The notes under the pieces: generated by a model
The model's input: only the letters and a program-made list of their open reading frames with translations
What the model was told of the DNA's origin: nothing
Databases searched by the model: none
IMG/VR virus record: IMGVR_UViG_3300025048_000003
Span: 1-57,049 of that record
DNA length: 57,049 nucleotides
DNA from: a virus
Lineage: Duplodnaviria; Caudoviricetes
Direction: 5' to 3' (one strand)
Part shown: positions 1 to 39,900 of the stretch, piece after piece
Layout: each line of letters starts with the position of its first letter
How positions within the stretch are numbered: the first letter of the stretch is position 1
Translations under genes and position numbers: made by a program

Positions 1-152
1 TAGGGGACGTGTCATCGCTATGTTGCGGGGAGGGTGTACATCTCAACCTGCACACCCTCACCTACCTTGATTCGTTGTACCCACAAGGTGTCGGGCAGCC
101 TCGCTTTTATAGTCTTGGCTACATCTCGCAAGGCAATTGATGTAGCTGATTG

Positions 153-545
153 TTATGACAGGAAGTCAGTGATTCTGTCCTGTGCATTCTCGATGCGTTC
201 CTCTTGCATATCATGAGCAGACCGCATCTTTTTTGAAAACCACAACTTGAATTCCATCATATCCTCACCATGACAACCCCATGAGCCATTCTTGATGACG
301 CTTCTGCGGTGTCCGTTTTGATCGTACATTACGAGGAAGGCATATATATATGGAGCGCATCTTGCAAAGCCATCTTCGATTCGATACTCGATAGCTATCT
401 TGACTTGCCTCTTTCCGAACTCATTGCGGTGAGGCAGTAAGGTGCTTGTGAGTATGGACTTGTGATTGTCGGGGTTGATTCCGATTACTTCCAGTCTGTC
501 CCATGCACCCAGCAAGTGGGTCAATGTGTTGTGTGTACATTTCAT
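153..545 (-). CDS. hypothetical early protein
   Basis: ORF track 153..584. Start moved to ATG at 545 because the longer start overlaps the promoter at 582-613. Confidence 0.6.
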   Translation of the reverse strand: MKCTHNTLTHLLGAWDRLEVIGINPDNHKSILTSTLLPHRNEFGKRQVKIAIEYRIEDGFARCAPYIYAFLVMYDQNGHRRSVIKNGSWGCHGEDMMEFKLWFSKKMRSAHDMQEERIENAQDRITDFLS

Positions 546-581
546 GTAATTGAGATTTTGATTTTGACGTTGTTGTCGATA

Positions 582-613
582 CAAAGATAAGGGACAGAAT
601 CCATTAATCCAAA
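582..613 (-). promoter_or_regulatory. Bacteroidota sigma-A-type promoter
   Basis: Minus strand reads TTTG-N20-TATCTTTG, matching the -33 TTTG / -7 TAnnTTTG consensus. Confidence 0.8.
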
Positions 614-621
614 TTTATTTT

Positions 622-882
622 CTAAGCCGCTGATTCTGAGGGGATTACAACCACTCCATCAACTTGGTCTGAGTAACACCAGTGTCCGTTGTTCAGGGTC
701 AGTACGTAATGCTCATCCAAGTTCACGCTCTCAACCTCATCCCCGTATTTCTCGCGAGGGTATTCCGTGCGCTCTACGCCTGTGACTACTGCAATTTTCT
801 GTGGGTCAGAGCCGAAGCCCCCACGATACACTACCTGTGTACCCTTGCGGATTATCCGCTTGTTCATAAACTTTGTTTTCAT
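622..882 (-). CDS. hypothetical protein
   Basis: 86 aa ORF; its start overlaps the stop of the upstream gene. Confidence 0.65.
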   Translation of the reverse strand: MKTKFMNKRIIRKGTQVVYRGGFGSDPQKIAVVTGVERTEYPREKYGDEVESVNLDEHYVLTLNNGHWCYSDQVDGVVVIPSESAA

Positions 883-1052
883 TGTTCTATTTTCTTACCT
901 GTTTTCGTATTCACCCATCCAACGCCCTCGACCCACTCCTCATCTGCATACAAGATTTGCTCTAACTCGTCGATAGTCATCTCGTAGAACTGCTCTTTCG
1001 TCATGTTCATTTCATCCCCGTAGGTCTTATACATCGTATCCCATACACTCAT
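879..1052 (-). CDS. hypothetical acidic protein (MSVWDTMYK...)
   Basis: Part of ORF 879..1136. ATG at 1052 is ATGA-coupled to the stop of the small ORF 1049..1195. Confidence 0.6.
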   Translation of the reverse strand: MSVWDTMYKTYGDEMNMTKEQFYEMTIDELEQILYADEEWVEGVGWVNTKTGKKIEQ

Positions 1053-1195
1053 TGTGACATCATTAAAAATGGATTTAAAAACTTGTTTGGTTTGGGTCGC
1101 TCCTCTACGGGATCGACGGGTATCTCGCCTCTGCATTGCGCAGTAAAGCGATTGAGGACAGCCTTGAGGAATACAGAGTATTCAGCGTCTGTCAT
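1049..1195 (-). CDS. small hypothetical protein, 48 aa (MTDAEYSVFLKAVLNRF...)
   Basis: Read by hand, below the ORF-track cutoff. Fills the gap and is ATGA-coupled to the next gene. Confidence 0.55.
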   Translation of the reverse strand: MTDAEYSVFLKAVLNRFTAQCRGEIPVDPVEERPKPNKFLNPFLMMSQ

Positions 1196-1208
1196 ATCGT
1201 GCTTGTAT

Positions 1209-1484
1209 TCAGGCTTCTTCATGAGACAATAAAATTGATTTGATTTTAGGACTCATCCTGTCGAGCATGGACTCAGCCACGCTAGTTTCAGCGTTATCCA
1301 AGTCTTCGAGGTATCCGAGTTGGTCAACCTCTCCATCATCGCCAACCTCAGGTTCAAAGTAAGCCGCTTCGTAAACAGCCTCATCAAAGGCATCACGCAG
1401 CTCGTCATTTCCTACAGGTCTGCCTGCTTCCTTGTATGAGCATAGCATATAGAACTTCTTTTCTTCAGGCTTCTGCATTGTCAT
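1209..1484 (-). CDS. hypothetical acidic protein
   Basis: 91 aa ORF in a tightly packed minus-strand operon. Confidence 0.6.
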   Translation of the reverse strand: MTMQKPEEKKFYMLCSYKEAGRPVGNDELRDAFDEAVYEAAYFEPEVGDDGEVDQLGYLEDLDNAETSVAESMLDRMSPKIKSILLSHEEA

Positions 1485-1896
1485 TATCTTTTTCTATGAA
1501 AACACTTTTTCTTTCATCTACATCGTAGTAGGCATCTTCGTTGCGCTCTACACACAAAGCATAGGCAGAACGAGAGGTAGCAACTTTCTCCGACACATCG
1601 AAGACGATGCAGTCATTGTCAATCCAAGTGCCTACGGCATATGAGACCCCACTAAGTCTGGATTCCTTGATTAGCTTGCGCACTTCGACTGCATACTTGT
1701 GCCAGATGGTGTGGAACGTGTTGGCATCGCAGATATCCAAAGGGATTTTGGTTTCTCCTGACAGACCGCCTACCATGAAGCCCTTATAAGGGACTTCAAA
1801 GTCGTATCCGTCTGATGTGAGTAGGGATGAGCCACCATCCATGAGGGTTCTGCCATAGGCAAGGCGAACAGCGTGTGTTGAGAACATTGTATTCAT
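1465..1896 (-). CDS. hypothetical protein
   Basis: ORF track 1465..1959. Start moved to ATG 1896, after the AT-rich leader and outside the tRNA-like element. Confidence 0.65.
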   Translation of the reverse strand: MNTMFSTHAVRLAYGRTLMDGGSSLLTSDGYDFEVPYKGFMVGGLSGETKIPLDICDANTFHTIWHKYAVEVRKLIKESRLSGVSYAVGTWIDNDCIVFDVSEKVATSRSAYALCVERNEDAYYDVDERKSVFIEKDNDNAEA

Positions 1897-1919
1897 ATTG
1901 AATAGATTAAAAAAATTAG

Positions 1920-2000
1920 AGCGGCTCAGGGACTCGAACCCTGCGACACTGACCTCCATCCCTGTTCCCCTCGCGATGGGTACTTAGGTAGGTAGCCGCT
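1920..2000 (-). ncRNA. tRNA-like RNA (acceptor stem and T-arm, no canonical D or anticodon arm)
   Basis: Perfect 7-bp acceptor stem AGCGGCT/AGCCGCT abutting a canonical T-arm CAGGG-TTCGAGT-CCCTG. The middle 50 nt fold as ACCT/AGGT plus CCATC/GATGG. Confidence 0.7.
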
Positions 2001-2012
2001 GATAGTGATAAG

Positions 2013-2375
2013 TTACTCGACTACATCGAGCCATTTAGAGTAAGGGAAGTTGTTTCCCCCAAGCAGGTAGATGCAGTACGAACCATTGCGGCTTTCGTAA
2101 ACTGGCTGTCCTTCGAAACTGAATTCAGTTTCTGTGCCTACCCACACCGCATACTCGTCCCCTGTTCGAGGGGAGATAGCTTTGATGTACTTACTACCAG
2201 AGGTAGTCTTGAACACTTTGAAGGGTTCTTCCTGAACCACAAGGTTCTCGTCTGCGTCGATCCCGCTTGACGTGTCGAAGCTTACACCATTGCCACCGAT
2301 GGTTTTTGCTTGGAAGGTTTGACCAAAGGTTGCAGACGCCATTGAGATGGCAAGGATGAAAAAGAAGTTTTTCAT
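2013..2375 (-). CDS. putative exported protein with Sec signal peptide
   Basis: N-terminus MKNFFFILAISMASATFG-Q is a Bacteroidota-style signal peptide followed by Gln. Confidence 0.75.
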   Translation of the reverse strand: MKNFFFILAISMASATFGQTFQAKTIGGNGVSFDTSSGIDADENLVVQEEPFKVFKTTSGSKYIKAISPRTGDEYAVWVGTETEFSFEGQPVYESRNGSYCIYLLGGNNFPYSKWLDVVE

Positions 2376-2395
2376 AATAAAGAAATAAATAAATT

Positions 2396-2448
2396 GAAAC
2401 TGACACTACTATGTAGTGTTTCGCCTACTTAAGGCTCATCAGAGTTCC
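2396..2448 (-). ncRNA. type I hammerhead ribozyme
   Basis: Minus strand: GGAACU-CUGAUGA-GCCU(UAAGU)AGGC-GAA-ACACUAC(AUA)GUAGUGU-C-AGUUUC. All core nucleotides, three stems and a GUC cleavage triplet are present. Confidence 0.92.
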
Positions 2449-2582
2449 TAACCTGCGGACTCATCGTCATCATCCGCTTGAGTGATTGTTTGCTTTTCCC
2501 CTTCAGGGGAGGAATCGTCCTCAAATTGAGCCGAACATAGGGATGCTATCGCAAGGGCACCCATCAGTAGTAACGCTCTCAT
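2448..2582 (-). CDS. 44 aa signal-peptide microprotein with acidic tail (MRALLLMGALAIASLCSA-QFEDDSS...DDDDESAG)
   Basis: Read by hand. ATGA-coupled to the upstream ORF; its stop abuts the hammerhead. Confidence 0.6.
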   Translation of the reverse strand: MRALLLMGALAIASLCSAQFEDDSSPEGEKQTITQADDDDESAG

Positions 2583-2746
2583 TTGGAGGAGGAGTTTACG
2601 AGGTCTTCAAGGCGCATCTGCTCATCGCAGGAGAGTGCATCGAAGCTTGCAGTGCAAGTGAATGCAGAGCCAAGGAGTTGAACATCGTTGAAGAGAGCCG
2701 AAGCCATTTGCGCTTTTTTGCGCTGTGTATCTGTGCTGTTATGCAT
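2579..2746 (-). CDS. small hypothetical protein (MHNSTDTQRK...)
   Basis: 3' part of ORF 2579..3055. ATG at 2746 lies downstream of the promoter at 2784-2815. Confidence 0.55.
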   Translation of the reverse strand: MHNSTDTQRKKAQMASALFNDVQLLGSAFTCTASFDALSCDEQMRLEDLVNSSSK

Positions 2747-2783
2747 AGGATTGAGATTTTGAAGTTGGCTGAATTGCCGATTG

Positions 2784-2815
2784 CAAAGATATAACAAACT
2801 TTTCGTTATTCCAAA
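2784..2815 (-). promoter_or_regulatory. Bacteroidota sigma-A-type promoter
   Basis: Minus strand TTTG-N20-TATCTTTG. Confidence 0.8.
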
Positions 2816-2840
2816 TTTAATTTTATACCCTTTAGGGTAG

Positions 2841-3083
2841 TTAGTCGATGAAGAGAGTATCGTAATGAGGCATATCCGCAGTCCAGCGGACAGCATGATG
2901 CGCCTCCTCCACGGGATCGAACACGTAGTCGCTCGAAGGAACTTCCTTGAGGAGACACCATTCACTCCCATCTTTGAGGAGTTGCCCAGCCGCCCAACTC
3001 TGGGCGTCTGACAAGCACGGAAAGCACATTTTAGTGCGGAATTCTGATTCCCCAAGGGGGAAGATAAAAGAGTAAATTGACAT
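2841..3083 (-). CDS. hypothetical protein
   Basis: 80 aa ORF with an AT-rich leader. Confidence 0.6.
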   Translation of the reverse strand: MSIYSFIFPLGESEFRTKMCFPCLSDAQSWAAGQLLKDGSEWCLLKEVPSSDYVFDPVEEAHHAVRWTADMPHYDTLFID

Positions 3084-3133
3084 AAATCTATGATTTAAAG
3101 GGTTTAATAACTAATGAAGTGATAACTACGTTA

Positions 3134-3910
3134 TCAGAATGGAGCAGTGTCAGCAATCAAAGCTTCAGCTTCAAGGCGGGCAGCCTCTATCTGAGCGGAG
3201 CGGAGTCGAGCCATGCACTCTTCGACAGTCTCACCCTCTAAGAGGGTCATTTTCATGAACTCCTTCTTACGAACCTTTGGTTCGACTACCTCGACTTCCT
3301 TACGAGGCTCGAAGGGCATAGCTTGACTACCGTCAAGAGCAACAGCTTTTGTCTTTTTGGCTTTGCCAATTCCGATGCCGTCCTTAGCTTGAGTTAACTC
3401 AAGACCAGCTTCTGACGTCCTCTTAGGACGACGGACAGCCTTTGACTTACTCTTCTTCGAAGAGCGTCTCTCTGCTGAAAGCAGAGCAAACAACTCCTTG
3501 TTTAGAACGGAACGTTCTGCTCTCTTCATCTTCTTACCAGAAGATAGAAGGGCTTCGATTTCAGCCTTCCGCCCCGTCTTCTTCGAAGACTTAGAAGCCT
3601 TCGGCTTTGGAGACTTGGCTTTTAAGCCAAGAGCATCGGCAATCTCCTTATGACTTACAGTCATAGACTCCGACTTCGAAGCCTTTGGCTTCTTAGTAGC
3701 CTTCGGCTTGGATTTGGACTTTGACTTAGAAGCCTTTGGCTTCTTAGCCTCTTCCTTCGGAACTTCGATGGACTGAAGGAACTGAACAAGTTCAGTAACT
3801 TGGAGTCGGCAGTTTGCCAACTTGCTCTCCGTTGGAGAGTAAACAAAGCTGTTTACAGCTTTCTTGAGGTCTTTCAGCATAGCTGATTTGTTTTCTAATG
3901 TCTTCGACAT
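3134..3910 (-). CDS. Lys/Ser/Ala-rich, histone-H1-like basic protein
   Basis: Repeated KPKASKS / KPKATKK motifs. First gene of the leftward operon. Confidence 0.7.
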   Translation of the reverse strand: MSKTLENKSAMLKDLKKAVNSFVYSPTESKLANCRLQVTELVQFLQSIEVPKEEAKKPKASKSKSKSKPKATKKPKASKSESMTVSHKEIADALGLKAKSPKPKASKSSKKTGRKAEIEALLSSGKKMKRAERSVLNKELFALLSAERRSSKKSKSKAVRRPKRTSEAGLELTQAKDGIGIGKAKKTKAVALDGSQAMPFEPRKEVEVVEPKVRKKEFMKMTLLEGETVEECMARLRSAQIEAARLEAEALIADTAPF

Positions 3911-3961
3911 TGTTGAGAGATTTAGATTTTCCTAAGTTGGCTGACTTCCAAAACCGACTTA

Positions 3962-4356
3962 AGAGATAAAGAGTAAATGAAGAAGTCATAAGACTCCTTC
4001 TTCATATACTCTATCTCTACTCCATTCAACCTACGGTATTAGCAAGCTAATACTCACGCCTTGACTACCAAGACACGATCCCTTTAGGGATTCAATGCGT
4101 TGGAGGAAAGCCATCAGTTTCAGCCTCTTGAGCATCTCTTCAAGAAGAGATAGTTAACCTTCAGTATTGAAGGTTGTTATCTAACCTAAGAGGTTAGGGG
4201 GAGGATTGACAGCGGTTCCTCTTGAACTACGTAGTAGTTTAGCTTCAAGCTGTTTCTAACCAATCGGTCTTATTCCTTTGATTAGTAGTTAGTTAACTAC
4301 AATCAACTCTTAACTTCGTAGAAGTTAGCTACTGACTTGGTTAGCCTAAAGGCTAA
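3962..4356. repeat. array of short inverted repeats (mini-hairpins)
   Basis: About 10 perfect 5-8 bp inverted repeats with 1-4 nt loops, plus one long imperfect hairpin at 3962-4018. Confidence 0.85.
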
Positions 4357-4526
4357 AAGTTCTGGCTAAAACCCCCTTGCATTATGCCTACGGGGTTTAC
4401 GAGATTGATTTCGGGTTCGAAGACACAACGTTAGTACGTATATAAGAATCCCCAAACTCTGTATTACACAGGAGTTTTTTGGCGATCTCATTTTTCGCCG
4501 CTTCTTGCGGTGACTTACGAACAGAG

Positions 4527-4535
4527 TTATCCACA
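4527..4535 (+). promoter_or_regulatory. consensus DnaA box TTATCCACA
   Basis: Exact match to the canonical 9-mer, in the largest non-coding region at the strand-divergence point. Confidence 0.5.
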
Positions 4536-4608
4536 AACCACCTCTCTATACTGGTTAAAAGGCTGTTACATAGAGGCTTAGGGGGTTTCATTAAAGCGTA
4601 TTGCTGAC

Positions 4609-4639
4609 TTGACTTTCTAAGAAAAAAGTTGTAACTTCG
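4609..4639 (+). promoter_or_regulatory. putative rightward promoter
   Basis: TTG-N20-TAACTTCG, one mismatch from TAnnTTTG. Confidence 0.55.
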
Positions 4640-4780
4640 CCAAAGCTATTCAGCGATAAAGCTTCATAGATGTTTTAAACCTAAGAGGCTGTCTTTAGGA
4701 TTACTTAAGTAAGTAATAAAACAGTAGCTACGTAGCGTCACTCAAACCAATTAAGTTGTAAAGGCGCAAAAACTGTACAC

Positions 4781-5044
4781 ATGGGAATATTAATAGGCTT
4801 GGCAGTGGGAGTGATCTACTGTGTTATAGGACGGGTATTCATCAAGCTTTCTAAGTTCTCTCTAGGTGCGGGATCCATAGGTGTTATTTCCTTGGGGGTT
4901 TTATCTAGGGTTATGTTTGGTGTGTTTGCTACTGTGGGGGTGATAGGGTTATTAGAACTAGATAAAGGACAGCTTCTTTCTTACTGCTTAGTACTGATGT
5001 TTATGAGCAGCGTTGTTCACCCTATTTTATCTATTAGGGAGTAA
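4781..5044 (+). CDS. small multi-pass membrane protein
   Basis: 87 aa with about three hydrophobic segments. Confidence 0.55.
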   Translation: MGILIGLAVGVIYCVIGRVFIKLSKFSLGAGSIGVISLGVLSRVMFGVFATVGVIGLLELDKGQLLSYCLVLMFMSSVVHPILSIRE

Positions 5045-5057
5045 CTATATTTGTAGT

Positions 5058-5261
5058 ATGAAGCCCATAAGAAGAAAAGCTCGACAGCTTGCTCGCCACG
5101 CAGTAGAAAGACGAAAGTTTATTGCCAAGCAATTAAAGAGAGACAAGGATCCTGGAGCCAAAGAATCAATGAAGGACATGAGGGCAGACAGGAAGAGAAT
5201 TAAGAAGAGCTATATACAGACTCGTAAGGATATCAAGAAATATATCAAATCTAAAAAGTAG
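5058..5261 (+). CDS. small basic protein (MKPIRRKARQ...)
   Basis: ATG follows TATATTTG (5046-5053) after a 4-nt spacer. Very K/R-rich. Confidence 0.65.
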   Translation: MKPIRRKARQLARHAVERRKFIAKQLKRDKDPGAKESMKDMRADRKRIKKSYIQTRKDIKKYIKSKK

Positions 5262-5273
5262 TATATTTGCTTT

Positions 5274-5909
5274 ATGAGACCGACTAATAAAAAAGAACTA
5301 GGCTTGGCCAAGTCTGCTAAAGGAGGGCAGGGAGCTTCACGAATAGAGGACCTGCTAGAAAAGCTTTCTGATTACAAGAGAAGCCAGTACGGAGACAAGT
5401 ACAAAGCGGGTGGTAAGTTTCCAGATCTAACTGGTGACGGAAAGGTCACTATGGCTGACATTCTTAAAGGTAGAGGAGTTAAGTCTGATGATTTCGAACA
5501 AGGCGGCGAAGTAAAAGGCGATGGATACAGCATTAAGATCGCAGGACAATACGCTGTAGGGTCTATTAAAACCATTCCTGATTCTGGTCAACAGTACGTT
5601 TCAATGGAGCTACCTGACGGAAAGGTTGTGCCTGTGTTCGGAGACTGGGAGAGCTATGGTAATCCTAACAGAGAAGGATTGATTGAAGACATGGATTATA
5701 GGATCTTCCCATTGGGAGACGGAACCTATTCACTAGATACTGGGGAGATGGAGAGCGAAATGAGCAGGGACGACAGCAGAAAAGTTGCTATGGAAGCCCA
5801 GGGTGGCCAAGGAGCTTCACGAATGGAAGACCTTATGGAAAAACTAAGTGACTACAAGGGAATGGGAATGACGCCAAGCGGAAGAATGAGGCCATATAAG
5901 CGACAATGA
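5274..5909 (+). CDS. hypothetical protein with internal repeat and EF-hand/dockerin-like loop
   Basis: GGQGASR[IM]EDL[LM]EKLSDYK occurs twice; DLTGDGKVTMAD loop. Confidence 0.75.
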   Translation: MRPTNKKELGLAKSAKGGQGASRIEDLLEKLSDYKRSQYGDKYKAGGKFPDLTGDGKVTMADILKGRGVKSDDFEQGGEVKGDGYSIKIAGQYAVGSIKTIPDSGQQYVSMELPDGKVVPVFGDWESYGNPNREGLIEDMDYRIFPLGDGTYSLDTGEMESEMSRDDSRKVAMEAQGGQGASRMEDLMEKLSDYKGMGMTPSGRMRPYKRQ

Positions 5910-6166
5910 GAAAAGTAACAGACCCTAAAAAGAAAGCAACAGGGGCTGAAAAGAAAGAAACGGTCGCTAACAAGAATCTTTCCGCTTATTCTGGATGGAC
6001 GACTGAAGCGCCGACGGCTCAAGAAGCTATTTCATTAGCCAGGAGAAAGGCTTTAGTCACGACAGACAAGTTAGGTCCATCAACTTTTAAGGCTAAACAC
6101 AAGCTAGTTGCTATTACAGATCCAAAGACAAAGAAAACCTTTTATAGGGTTTACTCTAACAGGTAG
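5906..6166 (+). CDS. small basic hypothetical protein
   Basis: 86 aa ORF, ATGA-coupled. Confidence 0.65.
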   Translation: MRKVTDPKKKATGAEKKETVANKNLSAYSGWTTEAPTAQEAISLARRKALVTTDKLGPSTFKAKHKLVAITDPKTKKTFYRVYSNR

Positions 6167-6255
6167 TGGGTAGTAAAAACTATTTCAATCCGAGGCTTAA
6201 ATTGCAGAGAAAAATAAATTATGATTCCAAAAAAAAAAGAACGGATAAAGCCTAG
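6166..6255 (+). CDS. micro-ORF copy 1 (MGSKNYFNPRLKLQRKINYDSKKKRTDKA)
   Basis: GTG start overlaps the upstream TAG. Paralogous to 6784..6942 with only synonymous differences over codons 2-12. Confidence 0.5.
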   Translation: MGSKNYFNPRLKLQRKINYDSKKKRTDKA

Positions 6256-6784
6256 GTATACTGAAGCTAAGGACAGAGAGGAATCCCCAGAGGAAAGACT
6301 TTCTGGCGCTTTAAGGAGTCAAGGGAGAAAACCCCAGGATTTGCTTTATATGCTTGAGTCTATGCGATCACCGACCGCTGTAGAGAGAAGAACCGAAATG
6401 TTTGACCCTAGCGCCAGATTTTCCCCTAGAGGAAGGGCTTTTGATCAAAACGGATCTGTAAGATATCAGGCTCCCTCTGAGACTGAAGGCGAGTATAGAA
6501 CCCAAGGTGTTATTCCCAGTAAGGGAGACGTTTCAGAAATTACTGGAGGCAGAGGAGAGACTAGCTCTAGAGGTCAGATACAAGTTGCAAAGATGCTGCG
6601 CGACCCAGCCGTTATGAGATATTTTATGGATCTATATGAAAAGGCGGGAGAGCAAAGAGCAGGCGGAGCAGCTACTTTAAGTAGTAACAAAAAGTCTTTA
6701 CTTGGGTCCATACTTGAATGCCTTCCAGATAAAGAGGGTAAAGTCCCTGCTAGTTGTAAAGGTCCCAAAGCCGCTTACAATTAA
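6221..6784 (+). CDS. hypothetical protein
   Basis: 187 aa ORF with an A-rich leader. Confidence 0.7.
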   Translation: MIPKKKERIKPRYTEAKDREESPEERLSGALRSQGRKPQDLLYMLESMRSPTAVERRTEMFDPSARFSPRGRAFDQNGSVRYQAPSETEGEYRTQGVIPSKGDVSEITGGRGETSSRGQIQVAKMLRDPAVMRYFMDLYEKAGEQRAGGAATLSSNKKSLLGSILECLPDKEGKVPASCKGPKAAYN

Positions 6785-6942
6785 TGGGTAGTAAAAACTA
6801 CTTTAATCCTCGGCTCAAAAGAATTAACCCTGCATCTGTTGCGGAAAAAAATAAATTTAATGAGGCTAAGCAAAAACCTAACACTCAGGGAAGCGGTAAA
6901 GTCAAACACAGCCACCCGTCTGGGAATAGACAACAGACCTGA
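6784..6942 (+). CDS. micro-ORF copy 2 (MGSKNYFNPRLKRINPASVAEK...)
   Basis: ATG overlaps the upstream TAA; runs out of frame into the endolysin start. Confidence 0.5.
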   Translation: MGSKNYFNPRLKRINPASVAEKNKFNEAKQKPNTQGSGKVKHSHPSGNRQQT

Positions 6943-7321
6943 TGAATGGGATATAGGAAACCTAAAGGCTATAGCGGAAAACATTTTCCAGCCTATACGT
7001 GATCATTTCGGTGTACCCATTGGGGTGTCTTCTGGATACCGAGGGAAGGACTTAAATAAAGCTGTAGGGGGGAGTAAGTACTCTCAGCATATGACAGGAG
7101 AGGCTTTGGATATAGACGCGGATATCCACGGAAAGGTAACTAACGCTGATATATTTAAATTCGTTAAAAATAACCTTCACTGGGATCAGATGATCTGGGA
7201 GTTCGGAGATGACGAGAACCCCGCATGGATTCACGTGTCATTCAAAGAAGGTGGCGGTAACAGATGTCAGGTCAAGCGAGCCTACCGAGATGAAAAGGGT
7301 ATCTACTACAGGGTGTTGTAA
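6860..7321 (+). CDS. endolysin, peptidase M15A family
   Basis: Motifs SSGYR...N..VGG...SQH..GEALD and WIHVS. Start moved to ATG 6860 (MRLSKNLTL). Confidence 0.85.
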   Translation: MRLSKNLTLREAVKSNTATRLGIDNRPDEWDIGNLKAIAENIFQPIRDHFGVPIGVSSGYRGKDLNKAVGGSKYSQHMTGEALDIDADIHGKVTNADIFKFVKNNLHWDQMIWEFGDDENPAWIHVSFKEGGGNRCQVKRAYRDEKGIYYRVL

Positions 7322-7725
7322 AAACGCTGTACCGCTAGCCTACCTTTCTGCGTCATCGCATAACGAACTCTGTAATTATATTTTGTCTCATCACGAAACA
7401 GGTGGTCCTCTAGCGTCTGAGACGGTGTAAGCTTATCGAAGTGTTTATATAAGTACCCACTAGACACAAGGGGGTATATCATTCTATCAGCTAGGTTCTT
7501 CTTGTACATACCGTAGTTCTCTGCTACCCACGATATAGTAAAGAATTCTAAATCGTAAAGGAACAGCATCAAGTTTAGGTAAGATCTGGTTAGGTCTGGG
7601 TTGCTCTCCAGAAAGTCATCCGTAGCGCTACGCAAGTTCTTTAAGTGATTATGCTTTACATACCTTTCTGGAAGCTTTGAAACCTCTCGAAATAACCTTG
7701 TTTTCTTAACGCTTGACCTAGGCAT
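7306..7725 (-). CDS. putative winged-helix DNA-binding protein
   Basis: Pattern LV..GYL ... Y.MT.KGR resembles the MarR-type wing. Lone counter-oriented gene. Confidence 0.5.
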   Translation of the reverse strand: MPRSSVKKTRLFREVSKLPERYVKHNHLKNLRSATDDFLESNPDLTRSYLNLMLFLYDLEFFTISWVAENYGMYKKNLADRMIYPLVSSGYLYKHFDKLTPSQTLEDHLFRDETKYNYRVRYAMTQKGRLAVQRFYNTL

Positions 7726-7765
7726 GTGTATTGTGTCGTATATTTGACTTAAACAAATTTACATC

Positions 7766-8062
7766 ATGAACCCTAAGGACACCCTCTTCTTTGCCGAAAT
7801 GTATTCTCTCGTCAAAAAGATGGAGGAGACAATTGATGAGTTCGAAATGAAAGATCGCACCCTAGCCTCTATAGTCGTTGGAGTTATAGACTTCGAAGCT
7901 GTAGAAGATGGAGATGAAAGCGCAGAGATGAAAACAATGTACAGCTTTAACCTAGAAAGTAGGGCGGAGTTAGATACACTAAAAGAAGTAATGGATAGCG
8001 CATATCAAGAAAACGATTCATTAGACGACCTCTTGGGTGATTTGGGCATATCCCTAAACTAA
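7766..8062 (+). CDS. acidic hypothetical protein
   Basis: 98 aa ORF downstream of TATATTTG at 7739-7746. Confidence 0.7.
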   Translation: MNPKDTLFFAEMYSLVKKMEETIDEFEMKDRTLASIVVGVIDFEAVEDGDESAEMKTMYSFNLESRAELDTLKEVMDSAYQENDSLDDLLGDLGISLN

Positions 8063-9246: not shown

Positions 9247-9323
9247 GCCCTCGTAGCTCAGCTGGATAGAGCAACAGCCTTCTAAGCTGTGGGTCCTAGG
9301 TTCGAGTCCTAGCGGGGGTACCA
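9247..9323 (+). tRNA. tRNA-Arg (anticodon UCU) with encoded CCA
   Basis: Acceptor GCCCTCG/CGGGGGT, D-arm GCTC/GAGC, anticodon arm ACAGC-CTTCTAA-GCTGT, T-loop TTCGAGT, 3' ACCA. Confidence 0.97.
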
Positions 9324-19561: not shown

Positions 19562-19580
19562 ATTTTCTTATCTTTGTTTC

Positions 19581-20792
19581 ATGGCTGTAATTGTAGGAGA
19601 TACCATAGAGATCATTGTTTCTAGCCCAACGGTTAAAAACACAATCAGCGTATCAACTCCAGCGCCAAACAATACAATTACAGTTTCCCAAGGATTTGTT
19701 GCTGCTGTGGGGTCTGGTGGGGGCTCTGGTAGCGGAGGAACGGTAACCAGTATAACTGCTGGGGAGGGTCTCATTGGAGGAACTATAACCTCCGCTGGAA
19801 CTATAAGCCTTCCAGATACTAACGTAACACCAGGTCAGTACACGTCTGCAAACATTACCGTAGATGAAAAGGGTAGAATTACATCCGCCACCAATGGGTC
19901 TACAGGCACTGGAAGTGATGGTGAGACGCTAACCACTCAGGTTATAAACATAACCAACAACGACCCTGCTTTCGATCATATGACCACTCCTATATCTATA
20001 GGCACTTCTTTAGAGGATATATTGATTGATATGCTTTCTGTTTATAGCACCACCGTGATATTTCTCAACTCATTGAGCGTGTCTCAGCTTGGTTCTAATG
20101 GCGAATGGGGTTCATATCAACAGCTTTTCAACGTACCAGTAAGAGAGGTGGGGGCTGGAATTAGGATAAATGGATTTACATTTAGTATACCCGACACCTC
20201 AAAAACTCAAGATAATTCTGTTTCTTTTATCGCTAATAATATCGTTCATGAAAGCGGACTCGCTGATAATGTTTTTGCCCCAACCTTATCTACTGTTTTT
20301 GAGTCTATTCCTTCAGTCCCTACATCTAACTTTTTAAAGGTTTCTGCCGTAGATGATGGGGGAGGGGAAAGTATAAACATATTTTCTGCAAGTAAAGCCA
20401 TTCAATGGAGGAGAAGGGTTAAGGTCGGGTCTAGTTCAACAGCCTCTCTTGCTGATTCTGCTGCTGCTCAGACATTGTTTGGTGGTCTTTCCACAATATT
20501 TAACGGATTAATCAATGAGTCTGTCATAGATACATCTGGGGATTCTGGAACAAACACTAACGGAAACTTTACCTATATAATTTACCCAGTTAGTTTTGGG
20601 GTTATTTCTAGTATAATTCAGGACAATGGATTTCAAGTCGTTTCTGATTTTCAAATAATGATTAACCCATCTACAAACTCCACTACATTTAACATCCAAA
20701 ATGAATATGGAGTAGTTTCTGAGTATAATATTTATAGATCTAACGATTCTGGAGTCTTCGGTATTAACACACCTATATCTATTTCATTCTAA
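19581..20792 (+). CDS. tail fibre-like structural protein
   Basis: GTVTSITAG.GL.GG.IT..GTI and G.Y..ANITVD.KGRIT.A.NG fibre motifs. Confidence 0.75.
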   Translation: MAVIVGDTIEIIVSSPTVKNTISVSTPAPNNTITVSQGFVAAVGSGGGSGSGGTVTSITAGEGLIGGTITSAGTISLPDTNVTPGQYTSANITVDEKGRITSATNGSTGTGSDGETLTTQVINITNNDPAFDHMTTPISIGTSLEDILIDMLSVYSTTVIFLNSLSVSQLGSNGEWGSYQQLFNVPVREVGAGIRINGFTFSIPDTSKTQDNSVSFIANNIVHESGLADNVFAPTLSTVFESIPSVPTSNFLKVSAVDDGGGESINIFSASKAIQWRRRVKVGSSSTASLADSAAAQTLFGGLSTIFNGLINESVIDTSGDSGTNTNGNFTYIIYPVSFGVISSIIQDNGFQVVSDFQIMINPSTNSTTFNIQNEYGVVSEYNIYRSNDSGVFGINTPISISF

Positions 20793-23888: not shown

Positions 23889-23920
23889 ATCTCTTATTTT
23901 GTTTTTATTATCTTTGCTCT

Positions 23921-24205
23921 ATGCCTAGGGTAAAAAAGAAGAAGAACGTTAGCCTGAAGATGGGCAAGCATAAGTCCCGATCTGGCGGACTTACCAAGGC
24001 TGGTGTGGCTAAATACAACAGAGAGACAGGAAGTAACATAAAGACCGCTGTCACCACACCCCCTTCTAAACTTAAGAAAGGCAGCAAGGCAGCAAAAAGA
24101 AGAAAGTCTTTCTGCGCCAGAATGTCTGGGGTAAAAGGACCTATGAAAAAACCCAACGGAAAGCCAACCAGGAAGGCTCTTGCGTTACGTAAATGGAACT
24201 GTTAA
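23921..24205 (+). CDS. small basic phage protein (DUF6321-like)
   Basis: GGLT.AG...YNR.TGS and RRKSFCARM ... AL.KW.C motifs. Confidence 0.7.
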   Translation: MPRVKKKKNVSLKMGKHKSRSGGLTKAGVAKYNRETGSNIKTAVTTPPSKLKKGSKAAKRRKSFCARMSGVKGPMKKPNGKPTRKALALRKWNC

Positions 24206-28754: not shown

Positions 28755-28768
28755 CGTATATTTGCTTC

Positions 28769-29512
28769 ATGGCAAAGACAATGGGAGCTAGTGTAGTAAC
28801 CGTATATGAAGCAGTGCGTGATCTCGCTAACAAGGATCAGCAGGGCTTTGTCACGGATAATGAGTTTAACTCATTTGCTAGAGTGGCTCAGCTTAATATA
28901 TTCAATGCGCTTTTTGACGAGCTCAAGGATGCAAGGAGAATGTCTAGAAACACCTTCAATCCAAGCAGGGATAAAGACAGAAGAAAAAGAATTCTTGAAG
29001 ACCTTTCTTCATTTTCCACATCGGCTGTCATTGCAAAAAGCTCTGAAGTATTTAACATGACTGACGACTCAGGCGCTGATATGTCTAGAATTATTAGCAT
29101 AAGCACTGCGGGAAGCATAATATTGGACGTGTCTACTACAACCCCTATTGATATTTGCTATGATGAGGAGAAGATAGAAAGAATACTCATCAGTAACATT
29201 AGCGCCCCTACAGAAGATTTTCCTGTAGCTCTTGTTTCAGATGACATTCATGTATTTCCCACATCCATAAACAAGATTAAGGTTAGATACTACAGATTTC
29301 CTATGGGAAGGTCAAGCACGGGCGCAACATCAACCACAGCTGTAACTTACACCACCAGTGGCTCTAGCATTGATTTTGAGCTTCCAGAGCATTATGTGTC
29401 TGATTTAGTTTATGAAATAGCCAGGATGATTGGGGTTAACTTGAGGGACAATGACGTCATCACATACACGGGGCAAGAGATGACGAATAAGAAACAAGCA
29501 GAGACATTATAA
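28769..29512 (+). CDS. tail ring / adaptor protein
   Basis: LANK.Q.GF.T..EFN..A..AQ motif; synteny before the muzzle gene. Confidence 0.65.
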   Translation: MAKTMGASVVTVYEAVRDLANKDQQGFVTDNEFNSFARVAQLNIFNALFDELKDARRMSRNTFNPSRDKDRRKRILEDLSSFSTSAVIAKSSEVFNMTDDSGADMSRIISISTAGSIILDVSTTTPIDICYDEEKIERILISNISAPTEDFPVALVSDDIHVFPTSINKIKVRYYRFPMGRSSTGATSTTAVTYTTSGSSIDFELPEHYVSDLVYEIARMIGVNLRDNDVITYTGQEMTNKKQAETL

Positions 29513-34646: not shown

Positions 34647-34659
34647 CTATATTTGCATT

Positions 34660-35838
34660 ATGCCAGCACCATTAATACCACTAGCTCTGCTAGCCGCGCC
34701 TACGATAATTAATCAGCAGACTGATAAAAAGAGGCTTCAACGTGATACTGATCGAGTAAATAACAGATTAGATAGGCTGGGGGCTCAAGAAAAAGATCTT
34801 CTAGGTAAAAGACAGTACGGAGTTGGAAATTCGTACAATCAGTTTTTGGCTGCTTCAAAACAAGACAAAGCTGCTGATCTGTTAAGGCAACAAGCGTCAC
34901 AGCAAGAAGCTGCTGGTATTGGTGCGCTTAAGGCTGGAGGCGCAAAAGCGTTGCTTGGTGGGTTGGGTTCTGTGCAAGGAGCGGCAGCCAATAAGATGGC
35001 TGGGATAGAGGCTGATTCTCAGGCCAGGCAACAGATTGCCTTAAAGGAATATGCAACGCAAGAACAGCTTTCCAGCGACCGAAATGTACGTCTTGCCTCT
35101 CAAGACTTAAAAAGAACTCAAGCTCTTCATGATTTATCAAGATCTAACAGGGAGCTGTTACGGGGTGAAAAGAGAAGGCAGAAAAATGCGAGAACGGATC
35201 AGTATATGAACATGGCCTCTCAGTTTCTTACTGGTAAGAACGGAGCCAAAGTTCCAGAGTATGTAGATGGAGGATCAAAAGTTGGAAACTTTCTTTTTGG
35301 AGAGCCAGGAGACGACGCTGACAAGAAATTTTTTGAGAAAGACAGAACCGTTGCTGCTGCTGGAGCCTTTTCTCAGGGGGTTAAAGAAGCTAGGGAGATG
35401 AGCAGGTATACTGGTCTTTCGGGAGGACTTCCTCGTGAGGCAGACCAGACCGCTGAAGAGGAAGAAGAAGCGATTCAAAAACGTGAAAATGAATCTGCCA
35501 CTGAGAAGAATACAGCTTTTGAGCGAATTATGGGGAGGCGTCTTGGTGAAAATCTTAACTTTGAGGGCGGCCTAAACGCCACTAAAAAAAGGCTGCTTGA
35601 AAACACAGCTACAGACGAAAAAAGAAATGGCGGCGTACAGAAGACTCCTGGTAAGTTTTCTCACGCAACCAACCCAATAGACATTATGCGAGAGGGCTCT
35701 AAGATTGGAGAAATGACTGGGGGTGAATATATTTTTAACCCAAACCAAGCCAGAACACTAGAGGCCTTGGCTTCTAAGGGGGGCTCTCCCCTTCATAAAT
35801 ATGTAAAGGGTTTGCTAAAAGAATTTGACAAGAGATGA
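34660..35838 (+). CDS. internal cargo / ejection protein 1
   Basis: Q/A/G-rich helical protein with TPG.FSH..NPID and E.TGGEYIFNP motifs; follows the muzzle gene. Confidence 0.6.
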   Translation: MPAPLIPLALLAAPTIINQQTDKKRLQRDTDRVNNRLDRLGAQEKDLLGKRQYGVGNSYNQFLAASKQDKAADLLRQQASQQEAAGIGALKAGGAKALLGGLGSVQGAAANKMAGIEADSQARQQIALKEYATQEQLSSDRNVRLASQDLKRTQALHDLSRSNRELLRGEKRRQKNARTDQYMNMASQFLTGKNGAKVPEYVDGGSKVGNFLFGEPGDDADKKFFEKDRTVAAAGAFSQGVKEAREMSRYTGLSGGLPREADQTAEEEEEAIQKRENESATEKNTAFERIMGRRLGENLNFEGGLNATKKRLLENTATDEKRNGGVQKTPGKFSHATNPIDIMREGSKIGEMTGGEYIFNPNQARTLEALASKGGSPLHKYVKGLLKEFDKR

Positions 35839-36907: not shown

Positions 36908-39900
36908 ATGAGTCAAGAGTTTGAAAGCAGGGTAAACGAATTGGTTGTAGCACGGAATCTACCTTACAACGAAGCTGCTGAAATCGTAACCAGGGAGTTA
37001 GCTGAAGAAGGGGTTGAAGAAACCCAAAAAAAAAAGGATACAAATTCCGAGCCTTCGGGTGGGAAGTTCAGCTCTGTAGAACAGCCTAGCCTTCCCTTGA
37101 CTGCGTGGCAGGTCAATCAAATTTCCGAAAACCCTGAGTTTGAAGAGGATATCATAAACACCTCAAGGACCGCAGCTGATCAGTCCGAGGTGGACTCGTT
37201 AAACGCTGAGTATCAAGCGCGTGTAGATAAATACAACTCAGAGTTTAATACTGAGGCAACCAAGCTTATAGACGTACTGAGCGAAACTCAAGATGAGGGG
37301 TATGATGATATTTACAGTAGGTTTCAGGAAGAGACTGGAGTGTCTCTTGACGAAGATCAGGTCAAAGAGATAACAGCTTTAGCTACAGAAAGAAAAGACA
37401 GCAAGATTGCCCTTGATAGCGCCTACAAGAAGGCTCAGGAAGACTCAAGTTCAACGGGTCGGTTTGATCCACTTCAAGGGTTTTATCGAGAGCTGGGATA
37501 CGATGAGGAAGAGATTGAAGACATAGAGGTAGAGTGGAACGGGGCAAGAACTAGAAACGAAGCTATAAGCTCAGCCTTTGAGTTTTCCCCTAACGTTGAA
37601 TCTTTTACTGAGGATATCAGCGCTTTAAACCTAGACCCAGAAAGAGAACAAGCCTTTGTAGCCTCTTACACAAAAGCTTTTAATCAAGCAGGAGAAGCTA
37701 TATATGAAAGCTCTATTAACTCTCCTGGTAAGCTGTCTAGGAGAGCTAGGGCTTTAGAGAAGCAGGCAAGAAAGATAGAGAGGGATTTGGGTAAGGATAA
37801 TCTAGCTCTTTACAAACAGGGCGAGACATTAGGCGGGGAGGCGACAAAGAAAGGTCAAGAGTATGAGCGACTGATGTTTGAAGCTTCTCAGCTTAGAAAC
37901 AATTTAGAGCAGTCAAGATCTGAAAACAGAAGGGTAAGAGATTTTGCTAAGGCTCATCCAGTTGCGGTTAGATCCGCCTTCTCTTTAATCGCTTCTGCGG
38001 AAAGACAGTTTCTTGAGGGTGCGTCAGAAGAAGTGTTAAGCGGTTTCTATAATGGTAATCTGACTTTCGAAGAGGCCATAGCAACTCAGTTCAACAGAGA
38101 CTACTATGAGTCTCAGGATTCAACTGTGCTTTACCCTAGTGGAGTTTATTTTGAGGGAGAGGATCGCATGGCTTTCGTTCCTGAGGTAACCCCTCTCTCT
38201 GGAGTTACTGACGCTCCTGTGTTCGGAGACCCATACATGTCTGTTGACCCTTTAACTGGTAGAGAGGTTGCTAGCGGTAAAAGAAACTTGACTAACGAGG
38301 AAATAGAAGCGGTAAATAAAAAGAAAGAAGAGTATCTAAAAGAAGAGTTTCAAAAGCTGTCGGAGGGTATGACAGACGAAGAGAAAGCTGAGTTCGAGGA
38401 GATTATTCGTGATAGAAGTGGAATCGCTATGTCTCTTAGAGGGGACGAAAACTTCGGCGGTACTGGGTTTGAATTTACTGGTCATTTGGATTTTATAGGC
38501 GGCCTAGCAGACCTTCCAGGAATTATAGCTTCAGCTCCAGTTCACCTCGGAGCTCATATTGATTATCAGGTTGCTATATCTATGGCAAAAACTGAAGAAG
38601 AAAGAAACGAAATAGAAGAAAACAATAGGTCTATACATGACAGAATTGAGTCTGATTTTGATGCAGGCGGAAAGGAATGGGCGGAGAATTTATCTGCTTT
38701 TGATGTGAGCGGAAAAGGTGCGATGGAAAGCCTTTTCAATGGAGATATATACGGTGGACTTATTAAGGCTACAAATTCAATTGGAGAAATGGCTCCAGAC
38801 ACTGTAGCTGCTATGGGGTTAAGTATGGCTACTGGGGGTGCTGGAGTAGGACTTTTATTCTATACCAACAGCATGGTAAGAACATTCAACTCTGTAAGGG
38901 ATGAGGAGTGGTACAAGAACTCTTCTGGCATGGAGAGAGCTCTTTTTCTAAATGGGATGTCTATTCTTGAGGCCGCCACGGAGAAGGTTGCAACTGCTGC
39001 CCAATTAAGACTATTGACCGCTAAGACTACTAGGGGGTTGGGAGAAACCACCAGGTCTCTTGCGAAAAGAAAAATAACTAACTTTTTTGGAGACGCAGGC
39101 ATAGACACAGGCATGGAGCTAGTAAACACAATAGGTCAGGCTTCTATAGAGTACAAAGCGGGGGGGAGAACAGGCTTTGAGGGCTTTGCTTACGAGTTAG
39201 GGGATGTAGCCCTTTCTAGCTTTGGATTGAGTGGTAGTACCTCATTAGTTGGAGCAGCTAAAAATAAGATCAGCGCATCTCTTTCTTCTAGCGCGGACAT
39301 AAACAACATGGGTGCTACTAGGTTTTTCCGAACAGAAATGGAAAGCATCATCAGCTCTACTGAAGCGAACAGCAAAGAAAGAGAGGTTGCTTTAAATGCA
39401 CTTACTGAAGACATGGGTGTTATAGGCGCTATTCAACTGGACTCGTTTGAGTTTCATCAGTTTATAGGTGATCAGAATGCGGCTGACGGTATTGAGCTTC
39501 TTGACAATTCGCTTGAGTTAGTATCGATAACTAAGCAAATCGAAGCCAGCACATCCAACAAAGAAAAAGAAGCCCTGAGGTTACAGGCGGAAAAGATTGT
39601 AGCTGACAGAACAAAGATTGAAGGTAAGTATATTAATTTGTTTGCCGCTCAAGAAGGTATTATGGAGGGCGCTCAAGTATCCAACAGACTAGAGACATTA
39701 AACGAAAGAGCCTCTATGTTCGAGGCTTACGCAAAAAAACTAGAGAGTCAAAACAACCCTATTCAGGCTGACTCAATGCGTAAAAGAGCCGAGAGGGTAA
39801 GAAACTCTGCTGAGTCCCTTGAGGTTCAAATGGAGCTAAATGAAAAGGTATCTAGCGGGGATGTGTTATCCAGCGAGGGTAGAAACGCCAGTAACATTAC

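Follow-up and report, generated by a model that had tools for sequence, protein, structure and literature searches.

A new type I hammerhead ribozyme between small genes of an IMG/VR virus: its family, gene context and possible role in mRNA punctuation

The window considered here is the whole of the IMG/VR virus record IMGVR_UViG_3300025048_000003 (Duplodnaviria; Caudoviricetes; 57,049 nucleotides), a linear record estimated to be 94% complete. A 53-nt element on the minus strand, located in a leftward operon of small genes towards one end of the genome, is almost certainly a real type I hammerhead ribozyme and probably cleaves itself in vivo. The best explanation overall, which we favour with moderate confidence, is that a genuine type I hammerhead cuts a polycistronic transcript as a form of punctuation. 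This reading is supported by the motif itself, by a family of related ribozymes whose stems covary around an invariant core and cleavage site, by the packing of the upstream stop codon against the ribozyme, by the spacing to the next start codon and by a shared leader. That the cut serves the leader of the downstream gene, through its translation or its stability, is a narrower proposal towards which the balance tips only just. The ribozyme is new and unannotated, gene-flanking phage hammerheads as such being already known (Perreault et al. 2011).

Architecture and covariation of the ribozyme family

An earlier note on this DNA had described a type I hammerhead at this place, and that description is borne out: every element listed there is present, its coordinates and pairings are all correct, and a covarying family and an independent covariance model now stand beside it. 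Along the strand, the element runs through stem I, the catalytic core, hairpin II, GAA, hairpin III, C17 and stem I again, with both of its ends in stem I and with loops closing stems II and III, which is the type I topology. Stem I pairs GGAACU with AGUUUC (6 bp, one of them G-U), stem II is opened by G10.1 and C11.1 (2435 and 2423) and stem III by A15.1 and U16.1 (2419 and 2403). The core shows zero deviations from the consensus, and C17, the cleavage-site base, is not G, as the hammerhead class requires. The predicted cut falls on the 3' side of C17, between minus-strand positions 2402 and 2401. The minimum free energy (MFE) fold of the 53 nt is identical to the hammerhead three-way junction (-13.8 kcal/mol), and the hammerhead fold is kept after the addition of 40 nt of flanking sequence on each side. 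Across the family, the columns for A15.1-U16.1, base 17 and G10.1-C11.1 are invariant or nearly so.

The family was collected from IMG/VR with a pattern that specified only stem I as GGNANN, the core, CGAAAC and an 11-nt spacer. This pattern matched at least 123 IMG/VR stretches, and at least 105 distinct hammerheads of the window's architecture were found, in 215 sources. Among the matches listed, 99 of the 111 distinct pattern-only matches satisfy the full three-stem descriptor, and all three of the stem II pairs that the pattern does not demand are formed in 110 of the 111. Of the 12 that fail the descriptor, two are cut by contig ends; judged by eye, several of the others are hammerheads with a mismatch or a large insertion in stem III, and about four are chance matches. 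A covariance model, R1, was built from 24 hammerheads of other phages, all of 50 nt, with the window and its two near-identical relatives excluded. Run on the window with filters off, R1 finds a sole hammerhead, at 53.7 bits (E 2.5e-12). The next match, at 11.9 bits (843..825), was considered as a second hammerhead or remnant and rejected, being a plain hairpin inside coding sequence.

Covariation was assessed on 99 R1 matches from 79 sources, which give 84 distinct rows. Over these rows 99.1% of the paired cells can pair, compared with 28-36% when the partners are slid by 1-3 columns. Changes on both sides are seen in 12 of the 15 pairs (304 cells); these take in all six pairs of stem I and three of the four of stem II, with stem III covarying too. 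None of 500 shuffles reached any of the five measures used. Of the two near-identical relatives (loci L002 and L003), one carries the ribozyme unchanged and L003 differs in the stem III loop alone, and the descriptor finds the same build with other stem sequences in three of 80 terminase-based relatives (L016, with two copies, L018 and L070). A tighter pattern gave 96 distinct matches among IMG/VR loci and, in 185,579 species genomes, only three stretches, of which one is in a Bacteroidota metagenome-assembled genome (MAG) and the other two are separate sites of a Nitrosopumilus MAG. The carriers of the family are essentially phages. A pattern with a 13-nt spacer led to six loci (L086-L091) that are unrelated, one of which gave a weak R1 match (L091, 23.5 bits) and the other five none.

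The ribozyme had also been called minimal in the earlier note. In functional terms this label is doubtful and probably a misnomer, because the bases just outside stem I and those at either end of loop II are conserved at 90-98% in about 100 members and hint at a tertiary contact. In addition to the unpaired A at -1 (Table 1), an A stands at each of +1 and +2 in 92% of the family, the 3' flank being demanded by none of the search patterns. The loop II consensus is U (97%), N, A (88%), N, U (90%), and stem I is 6 bp long in nearly all members. Base +1 and the last base of loop II could pair in 96 of 99 members (A:U in 90, U:A in three, U:G in two and C:G in one, with G:G in two and A:G in one making up the rest), where shuffles gave a mean of 85.1 and none of 2000 did as well, in a screen of 50 position pairs whose statistics ignore relatedness. 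One member swaps A:U to U:A both at -1 with the first loop base and at +1 with the last. These data offer a weak hint that the flanks of stem I make a tertiary contact with loop II, as happens in full-length hammerheads. The known tertiary contact of the Schistosoma-type full-length type I ribozyme has this same geometry, with bases left unpaired some 6 bp along stem I lying opposite the loop of a 4-bp stem II. The present family differs in that its unpaired bases belong to the single strands on either side of an open stem I and not to an internal bulge, and in that its contact is a putative one. Pairing of the 5' flank (-5..-2) with loop II as a pseudoknot was also considered; its best case (-4 with loop position 2) was equalled by 10 of 2000 shuffles, which is unconvincing after 50 tests, and it was set aside.

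Gene context and a possible role in mRNA punctuation

The position of the ribozyme relative to its neighbouring genes is shared widely in the family. The counts that follow are of distinct family hammerheads among the matches listed, and the rules used to call open reading frames (ORFs) were crude. The longest upstream ORF on the same strand terminates between -14 and +10 of the ribozyme start in 76 of 103 cases. Within those 76, 13 ORFs abut the ribozyme, nine share its first G through a TAG (the window's type) and 19 use the UGA of CUGAUGA, the stop codon of the upstream gene being often provided by the ribozyme core itself. On the downstream side, the distance from the ribozyme to the first ATG with an open frame of 40 codons or more is 10-27 nt in 82 of 101 cases, 17-24 nt in 72 and 19-21 nt, the mode, in 53; the remaining cases comprise seven with the ATG inside stem I, 11 in which it is more distant and one with none. 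The leader between ribozyme and start codon is poor in G, with 1-8% at positions +1..+9 and +11..+12 and 12% at +10. Near-identical ribozymes and leaders precede different downstream proteins in different contigs. The window satisfies every one of these family context points (stop codon, spacing, G-poor leader, flanking As, loop II and 6-bp stem I). In 10 of 37 distinct contexts the common family leader has no hammerhead before it and instead follows the 3' end of a tRNA, promoter-like palindromic repeats or a different structured element of about 120 nt.

In the window, the flanking genes lie likewise on the minus strand, in keeping with the earlier note's placing of the ribozyme on the sense strand. 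The ribozyme begins, as had been proposed, at the last base of the upstream stop codon: the TAG of a 44-aa ORF occupies 2450-2448 and its final G opens stem I. The view that the ribozyme fills the intergenic gap stands for 53 of the 72 nt, and fails for the remaining 20 nt (2395-2376), which form the leader of the next gene. The 44-aa reading frame is maintained in L002 and L003 at 86% and 100% identity, and the 120-aa protein encoded downstream is 96-97% identical in these two, the only other IMG/VR loci in which it was found. No Pfam or PHROG family was found for the 44-aa ORF, the 120-aa protein has a weak match to PHROG 16207 (E 2.7e-4), and searches of the flanking small proteins against Pfam and PHROG gave nothing informative. 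A tie of the ribozyme to one gene family was rejected, since the proteins encoded downstream vary from locus to locus and only two IMG/VR relatives of the 120-aa protein were found. The first 20 nt of the 120-aa ORF (2356-2375, minus strand) could form an 8-bp A-U hairpin holding the start codon; this hairpin may simply result from the use of Lys/Asn and Phe codons.

Many genes of the window are preceded by a TAnnTTTG box, which we take to be the -7 promoter element of Bacteroidota (consensus -33 TTTG / -7 TAnnTTTG). A promoter-like tandem of this kind, consisting of TAAATTTGG (TTTG), about 20 nt and then TATCTTTG, lies upstream of the ribozyme at 2819-2784 and is, judged from its sequence, the likely start of the ribozyme-carrying transcript. 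Some 30 nt of leader, poor in G, separate this module from an ATG at 2745, and by eye this leader resembles those that follow hammerheads in relatives. Because the promoter-like module sits inside a TTG-started ORF of 158 aa (3055..2579), that ORF is probably in reality a 55-aa gene which starts from the ATG at 2745. The probable transcription unit would consist of promoter, 55-aa ORF, 44-aa ORF, ribozyme, 20-nt leader and 120-aa ORF. No terminator-like sites were found between 2448 and 2375 on the minus strand. A similar promoter-like tandem (TAAATTTGG, about 20 nt, TATCTTTG) is present at 617-582, also on the minus strand.

In the mechanism that we propose, transcription would probably run from the module at 2819-2784 through the 55-aa and 44-aa ORFs, and the 53-nt ribozyme would fold co-transcriptionally and cut itself after C17 (2402). 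The upstream RNA would be left with the folded ribozyme and a 2',3'-cyclic phosphate at its end. The downstream RNA would begin 5'-OH-AGUUUC, and an unstructured leader of 26 nt (6 nt from stem I plus the G-free 20 nt) would bring it to the AUG of the 120-aa gene. The cut would thereby act as punctuation, uncoupling the downstream cistron from those upstream and giving it a short, free-ended leader like that of promoter-proximal genes, and with this free leader the translation of the 120-aa gene, and perhaps its stability, may no longer depend on the cistrons before it. A defined 5' end is what is obtained from RiboJ, an engineered insulator of type III origin in which a hammerhead is placed just 5' of the ribosome-binding region. 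A short free leader would suit the presumed host, in which Shine-Dalgarno sequences go unheeded and start sites are chosen for their low structure and for adenines upstream of them: according to the parts of two papers drawn on here, Bacteroidia ribosomes make no use of Shine-Dalgarno sequences, and mRNA structure and upstream adenines tune initiation (PMC6847099, PMC13000457).

A broader reading of the same arrangement is tentative and, on balance, doubtful. It holds that in podophages of marine Bacteroidota each small gene receives one and the same leader, short, poor in G and free at its 5' end, from any of several devices which make RNA ends. These devices may include the type I hammerhead, a tRNA, the second structured RNA of about 120 nt and a promoter. 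In addition, the bases on either side of the open 6-bp stem I may make cleavage fast by forming two tertiary A-U contacts, a type of contact which, if true, is not known to have been described for hammerheads. If this broader reading were right, translation in hosts blind to Shine-Dalgarno sequences would depend on proximity to a 5' end.

Table 1. Coordinates of the ribozyme, its parts and associated features; positions are those of the window unless a locus (L number) is given, and minus-strand features are read from the higher to the lower position.
Feature	Position	Strand	Basis
Type I hammerhead ribozyme, 53 nt, read 2448 to 2396	2396..2448	minus	sequence, MFE fold, covariance model R1
Stem I, 5' strand GGAACU	2443..2448	minus	sequence; family covariation at all 6 stem I pairs
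Catalytic core C3-A9, CUGAUGA	2436..2442	minus	sequence; invariant in family alignment A2 except N7
Stem II GCCU/AGGC, 4 bp, G10.1-C11.1 first, 5-nt loop UAAGU	2423..2435	minus	sequence
Core G12 A13 A14	2420..2422	minus	sequence
Stem III ACACUAC/GUAGUGU, 7 bp from A15.1-U16.1, loop AUA	2403..2419	minus	sequence
C17	2402	minus	position in hammerhead consensus
Stem I, 3' strand AGUUUC	2396..2401	minus	sequence, fold
Unpaired A at -1, the A of the window's TAG stop codon	2449	minus	A in 98% of 100 family members
Leader, 20 nt, G-free and A/U-rich, opening with conserved AA (+1, +2)	2376..2395	minus	sequence
Upstream 44-aa ORF, signal-peptide-like N-terminus, acidic tail, ending in TAG 2450-2448	2448..2582	minus	ORF call
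Downstream 120-aa ORF, signal-peptide-like N-terminus	2013..2375	minus	ORF call
Probable 55-aa ORF, ATG 2745, overlapping the 44-aa ORF by ATGA	2579..2745	minus
Promoter-like tandem TAAATTTGG (TTTG), about 20 nt, then TATCTTTG	2784..2819	minus	sequence resemblance, Bacteroidota type
Second structured RNA	L097:286-425	plus
Second structured RNA	L096:38-197	plus
Second structured RNA	L124:1-109	plus
Second structured RNA	L135:2286-2431	minus
Second structured RNA	L170:2011-2170	minus

Alternative explanations

A number of findings weigh against the reading that we favour, and some of them would sit well with a chance or decayed hammerhead-like motif without activity. The core words by themselves (CTGATGA, 6-36 nt, CGAAA) match once in the window against 0.29 expected, and at least once in 25 of 100 shuffles, and the fold energy is unremarkable (z -1.7, with 11 of 200 shuffles as good). 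At the gathering score, Rfam reports a tRNA alone and no hammerhead in the window. In E-value mode, Hammerhead_3 (RF00008) scores 19.9 bits against a gathering score of 48.5, and in the wrong register, RAGATH-1-hammerhead (RF03152) scores 17.0 bits against 56.3 in the correct register, and Hammerhead_1 (RF00163, gathering score 34) has no match in the genome at E<=10; the ribozyme class is the same, but the window scores far under the curated cut-offs. Some consensus-like candidates also proved inactive in Perreault et al., in the part of that paper used here (PMC3088659). Neither the core words nor the fold energy is significant alone, but the full descriptor (core, three stems and U-H) is: in 1000 first-order-Markov windows, with both strands searched, it gave two loose matches (stems of at least 4/3/4 bp) and none at the observed 6/4/7 bp. 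At the gathering score Rfam likewise reports none of the hammerheads in 20 family loci, and its failure is a false negative of those models, not evidence against the motif. The Rfam search that the earlier note had suggested as a check shares this fault, the window ribozyme falling below threshold in every hammerhead model. With the R1 E-value given above, conservation in two relatives with changes in the loop alone, a family that covaries and a core without deviation, chance is practically excluded.

Other points against the favoured reading concern the way in which the family was assembled and the reach of the arrangement. The collection pattern fixes part of stem I and the pairing descriptor filters afterwards, so that the model-fitted alignment leans towards structure; the pattern-only count of stem II pairs is the unbiased and cleaner test, and it agrees with that alignment. 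The seven of 101 starts that fall on an ATG inside stem I are probably artefacts of the ORF rules. The sequence of the window's leader is unlike the commonest family leader. The window holds one ribozyme and most of its gene junctions are without one, while relatives have two or three copies at spacings of 235-1841 nt; with its single copy the window lies outside the clustered-hammerhead class, and RNA circularisation between paired hammerheads, considered as a further candidate, is inapplicable here. The hammerhead is dispensable or mobile, because just three of the 18 relatives by large terminase (TerL) that have at least 7 kb of upstream DNA show one there. Cleavage and transcript ends, in the window's phage and in the family, are predicted from sequence. 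A 5'-OH end, moreover, can mark an RNA for decay, as it does for the glmS ribozyme and RNase J1 in Bacillus.

Such decay could itself be what was selected. We consider it unlikely, but the ribozyme may cleave with an effect that is negative or that falls on the upstream RNA. In one variant, downstream expression would be lowered by a 5'-OH end exposed to decay; in another, the ribozyme would form or stabilise the 3' end of the 55-aa and 44-aa messages, its structured end with a cyclic phosphate resisting 3' exonucleases and replacing a terminator. The stop codon that lies within the ribozyme or close up to it in 76 of 103 cases, which makes the ribozyme effectively the 3' untranslated region of the upstream gene, speaks for this explanation, as does the lack of a terminator-like site between 2448 and 2375 on the minus strand, and Perreault et al., in the part of their paper drawn on here, left the purpose of phage hammerheads open and mention regulated cleavage (PMC3088659). 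It fails, however, to explain the spacing of 17-24 nt to the start codon and the conserved G-poor leader, and it likewise fails to explain why the same leader follows tRNAs and promoter-like sites. Another explanation, which we regard as quite improbable, is that ribozyme and leader are chiefly a cassette boundary, a linker of about 75 nt which would aid recombinational shuffling of small accessory genes, with cleavage secondary. T4-type phages carry promoter-stem-loop linkers of this sort between gene cassettes. Near-identical ribozymes and leaders before different downstream proteins, several copies per genome at the spacings given above, the patchy presence in three of 18 TerL relatives and the poor conservation of the flanking genes (the 120-aa protein being found in two other IMG/VR loci alone) are all in its favour. 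A recombination linker needs sequence identity, however, and covarying stems erode it; stems that covary around an invariant core and cleavage site show selection on RNA fold and catalysis, not on DNA identity alone. The cassette-boundary and punctuation roles are not mutually exclusive, and punctuation is the one that we prefer.

Genome setting, related elements and known hammerheads

A second conserved structured RNA, of about 120 nt, occupies the position of the hammerhead directly 5' of the common leader at the five sites given in Table 1. It is made up of a long GA/UC-rich hairpin and a second hairpin with GAGAGUCG in its loop; the opening bases of the leader are paired with the outer helix of this RNA. 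The example in L097 folds at -54.7 kcal/mol (z -6.1) and no Rfam family was found for it; we regard this RNA as a candidate processing element or ribozyme. At L096:1377-1536 (plus strand) the common leader begins 6 nt past the 3' end of a tRNA gene, and here the tRNA looks like punctuation that replaces the hammerhead.

The genome encodes a large terminase, a portal, virion proteins, ribonucleotide reductase, primase/helicase, an endolysin and GroES. Its TerL shares 41-47% identity with those of Flavobacterium phages (genus Elemovirus) and of an uncultured podovirus; with those of Cellulophaga phages the figure is 34-35%. A megablast search of window positions 1-8000 against a phage collection gave no match. 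We read the window as a podophage of marine Bacteroidota. A tRNA-Arg gene (anticodon TCT) lies at 9247-9323 on the plus strand, directly upstream of the terminase gene, and relatives have tRNAs correspondingly placed. The ORF at 36908-46558 (plus strand), of 3216 aa, has no Pfam or PHROG family, and its neighbours of 392 and 345 aa are without a PHROG match. Also on the plus strand, a TAnnTTTG box stands 3-4 nt before an ATG at 5262-5276, 19569-19583, 23909-23923, 28757-28771 and 34648-34662 (the ATGs being at 5274, 19581, 34660 and two more), an arrangement which suggests that several genes of the structural module may have leaderless mRNAs, with translation dependent on the 5' end.

The purpose of phage hammerheads has been a question since their discovery in 2011. 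In the portion of Perreault et al. (2011, PMC3088659) on which the following comparison rests, prophage hammerheads of all three types flank genes, tandem arrays underwent cleavage in vitro, and clustered hammerheads were proposed to yield gene-length mRNAs from long phage transcripts. Those ribozymes share with the present one the core, the three-stem junction and a DNA-encoded place in phage intergenic regions, often with several per block of genes. They come, however, mostly from prophages of Proteobacteria and Firmicutes, many are of type II and a pseudoknot between loop I and the tail is frequent, whereas the family described here is of type I, with an open stem I of exactly 6 bp and a fixed distance to the start codon, and sits in lytic-looking podophages of marine Bacteroidota. 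A likeness is also seen with HHphage, the hammerhead of haloviruses HF1 and HF2, which precedes a start codon by 13 nt within an early polycistronic transcript and for which a mapped transcript 5' end falls within 3 nt of the cleavage site (PMC3088659). It differs in its archaeal host, its variant core with insertions, its need for high salt and its place before the first ORF of a transcript, not between two ORFs.

According to the part of a 2026 paper available here (PMC13725137), type I is the usual hammerhead form of bacteria and phages, and the same source describes hammerheads in the 5' untranslated and intergenic regions of chrysovirids and fusarivirids. These too are of type I, have a long helix III and lie just 5' of an ORF, one of them cleaving 7 nt before the start; a role in translation initiation has been proposed for them, and a self-cut end was confirmed by rapid amplification of cDNA ends (PMC13725137). 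They differ in belonging to RNA viruses of fungi and plants, with eukaryotic translation, and the usual loop-loop contacts are apparently missing from them. Within the partial literature covered, no description was found of hammerheads in Flavobacterium or Cellulophaga phages or of a leader-coupled arrangement, nor of an open 6-bp stem I with conserved A flanks, of stop codons inside the ribozyme or of a range across Bacteroidota phages.

The family gives unusually clean handles on what phage hammerheads are for, namely its rigid architecture, its fixed distance to the start codon and a host phylum with unusual translation initiation. Three cultured phages carry it, and they make end-mapping and mutants feasible: Cellulophaga phage phi19:3 (NC_021789 21769-21817, minus strand; R1 50.1 bits), Cellulophaga phage phi18:3 (NC_021794 21904-21958; 32 bits) and Flavobacterium phage elemoF_6-3D (NC_055853 16045-16102; 41.1 bits). 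R1 searches of phi40:1 and MW202828 found no match. In all three carriers the hammerhead lies between small hypothetical genes on the same strand and is unannotated in GenBank. This amounts to an annotation blind spot, in which Rfam thresholds miss the family and GenBank records leave it out. In elemoF_6-3D, a 35-aa hypothetical gene, gp66 (NC_055853.1 16030-16137; L224:1031-1138), is annotated in the opposite direction to its neighbours and exactly over the hammerhead, and is probably a spurious gene call. In phi18:3, the leftward operon that bears the hammerhead runs on into an ArdA anti-restriction gene (NC_021794.1 20432-20998; L225:1-99), an arrangement which echoes an association of ardA with hammerheads noted by Perreault et al. 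in the part of their paper used here (PMC3088659).

The two sites in the Nitrosopumilus MAG (OZ241981.1; L227 and L228) lie about 1.7 Mb apart and hold a repeated non-coding element of about 400 nt, the copies being about 82% identical. The element contains a type I hammerhead of the family build (R1 45-51 bits), and an internal direct repeat within it precedes a degenerate copy; its context is archaeal, unlike that of the phage family.

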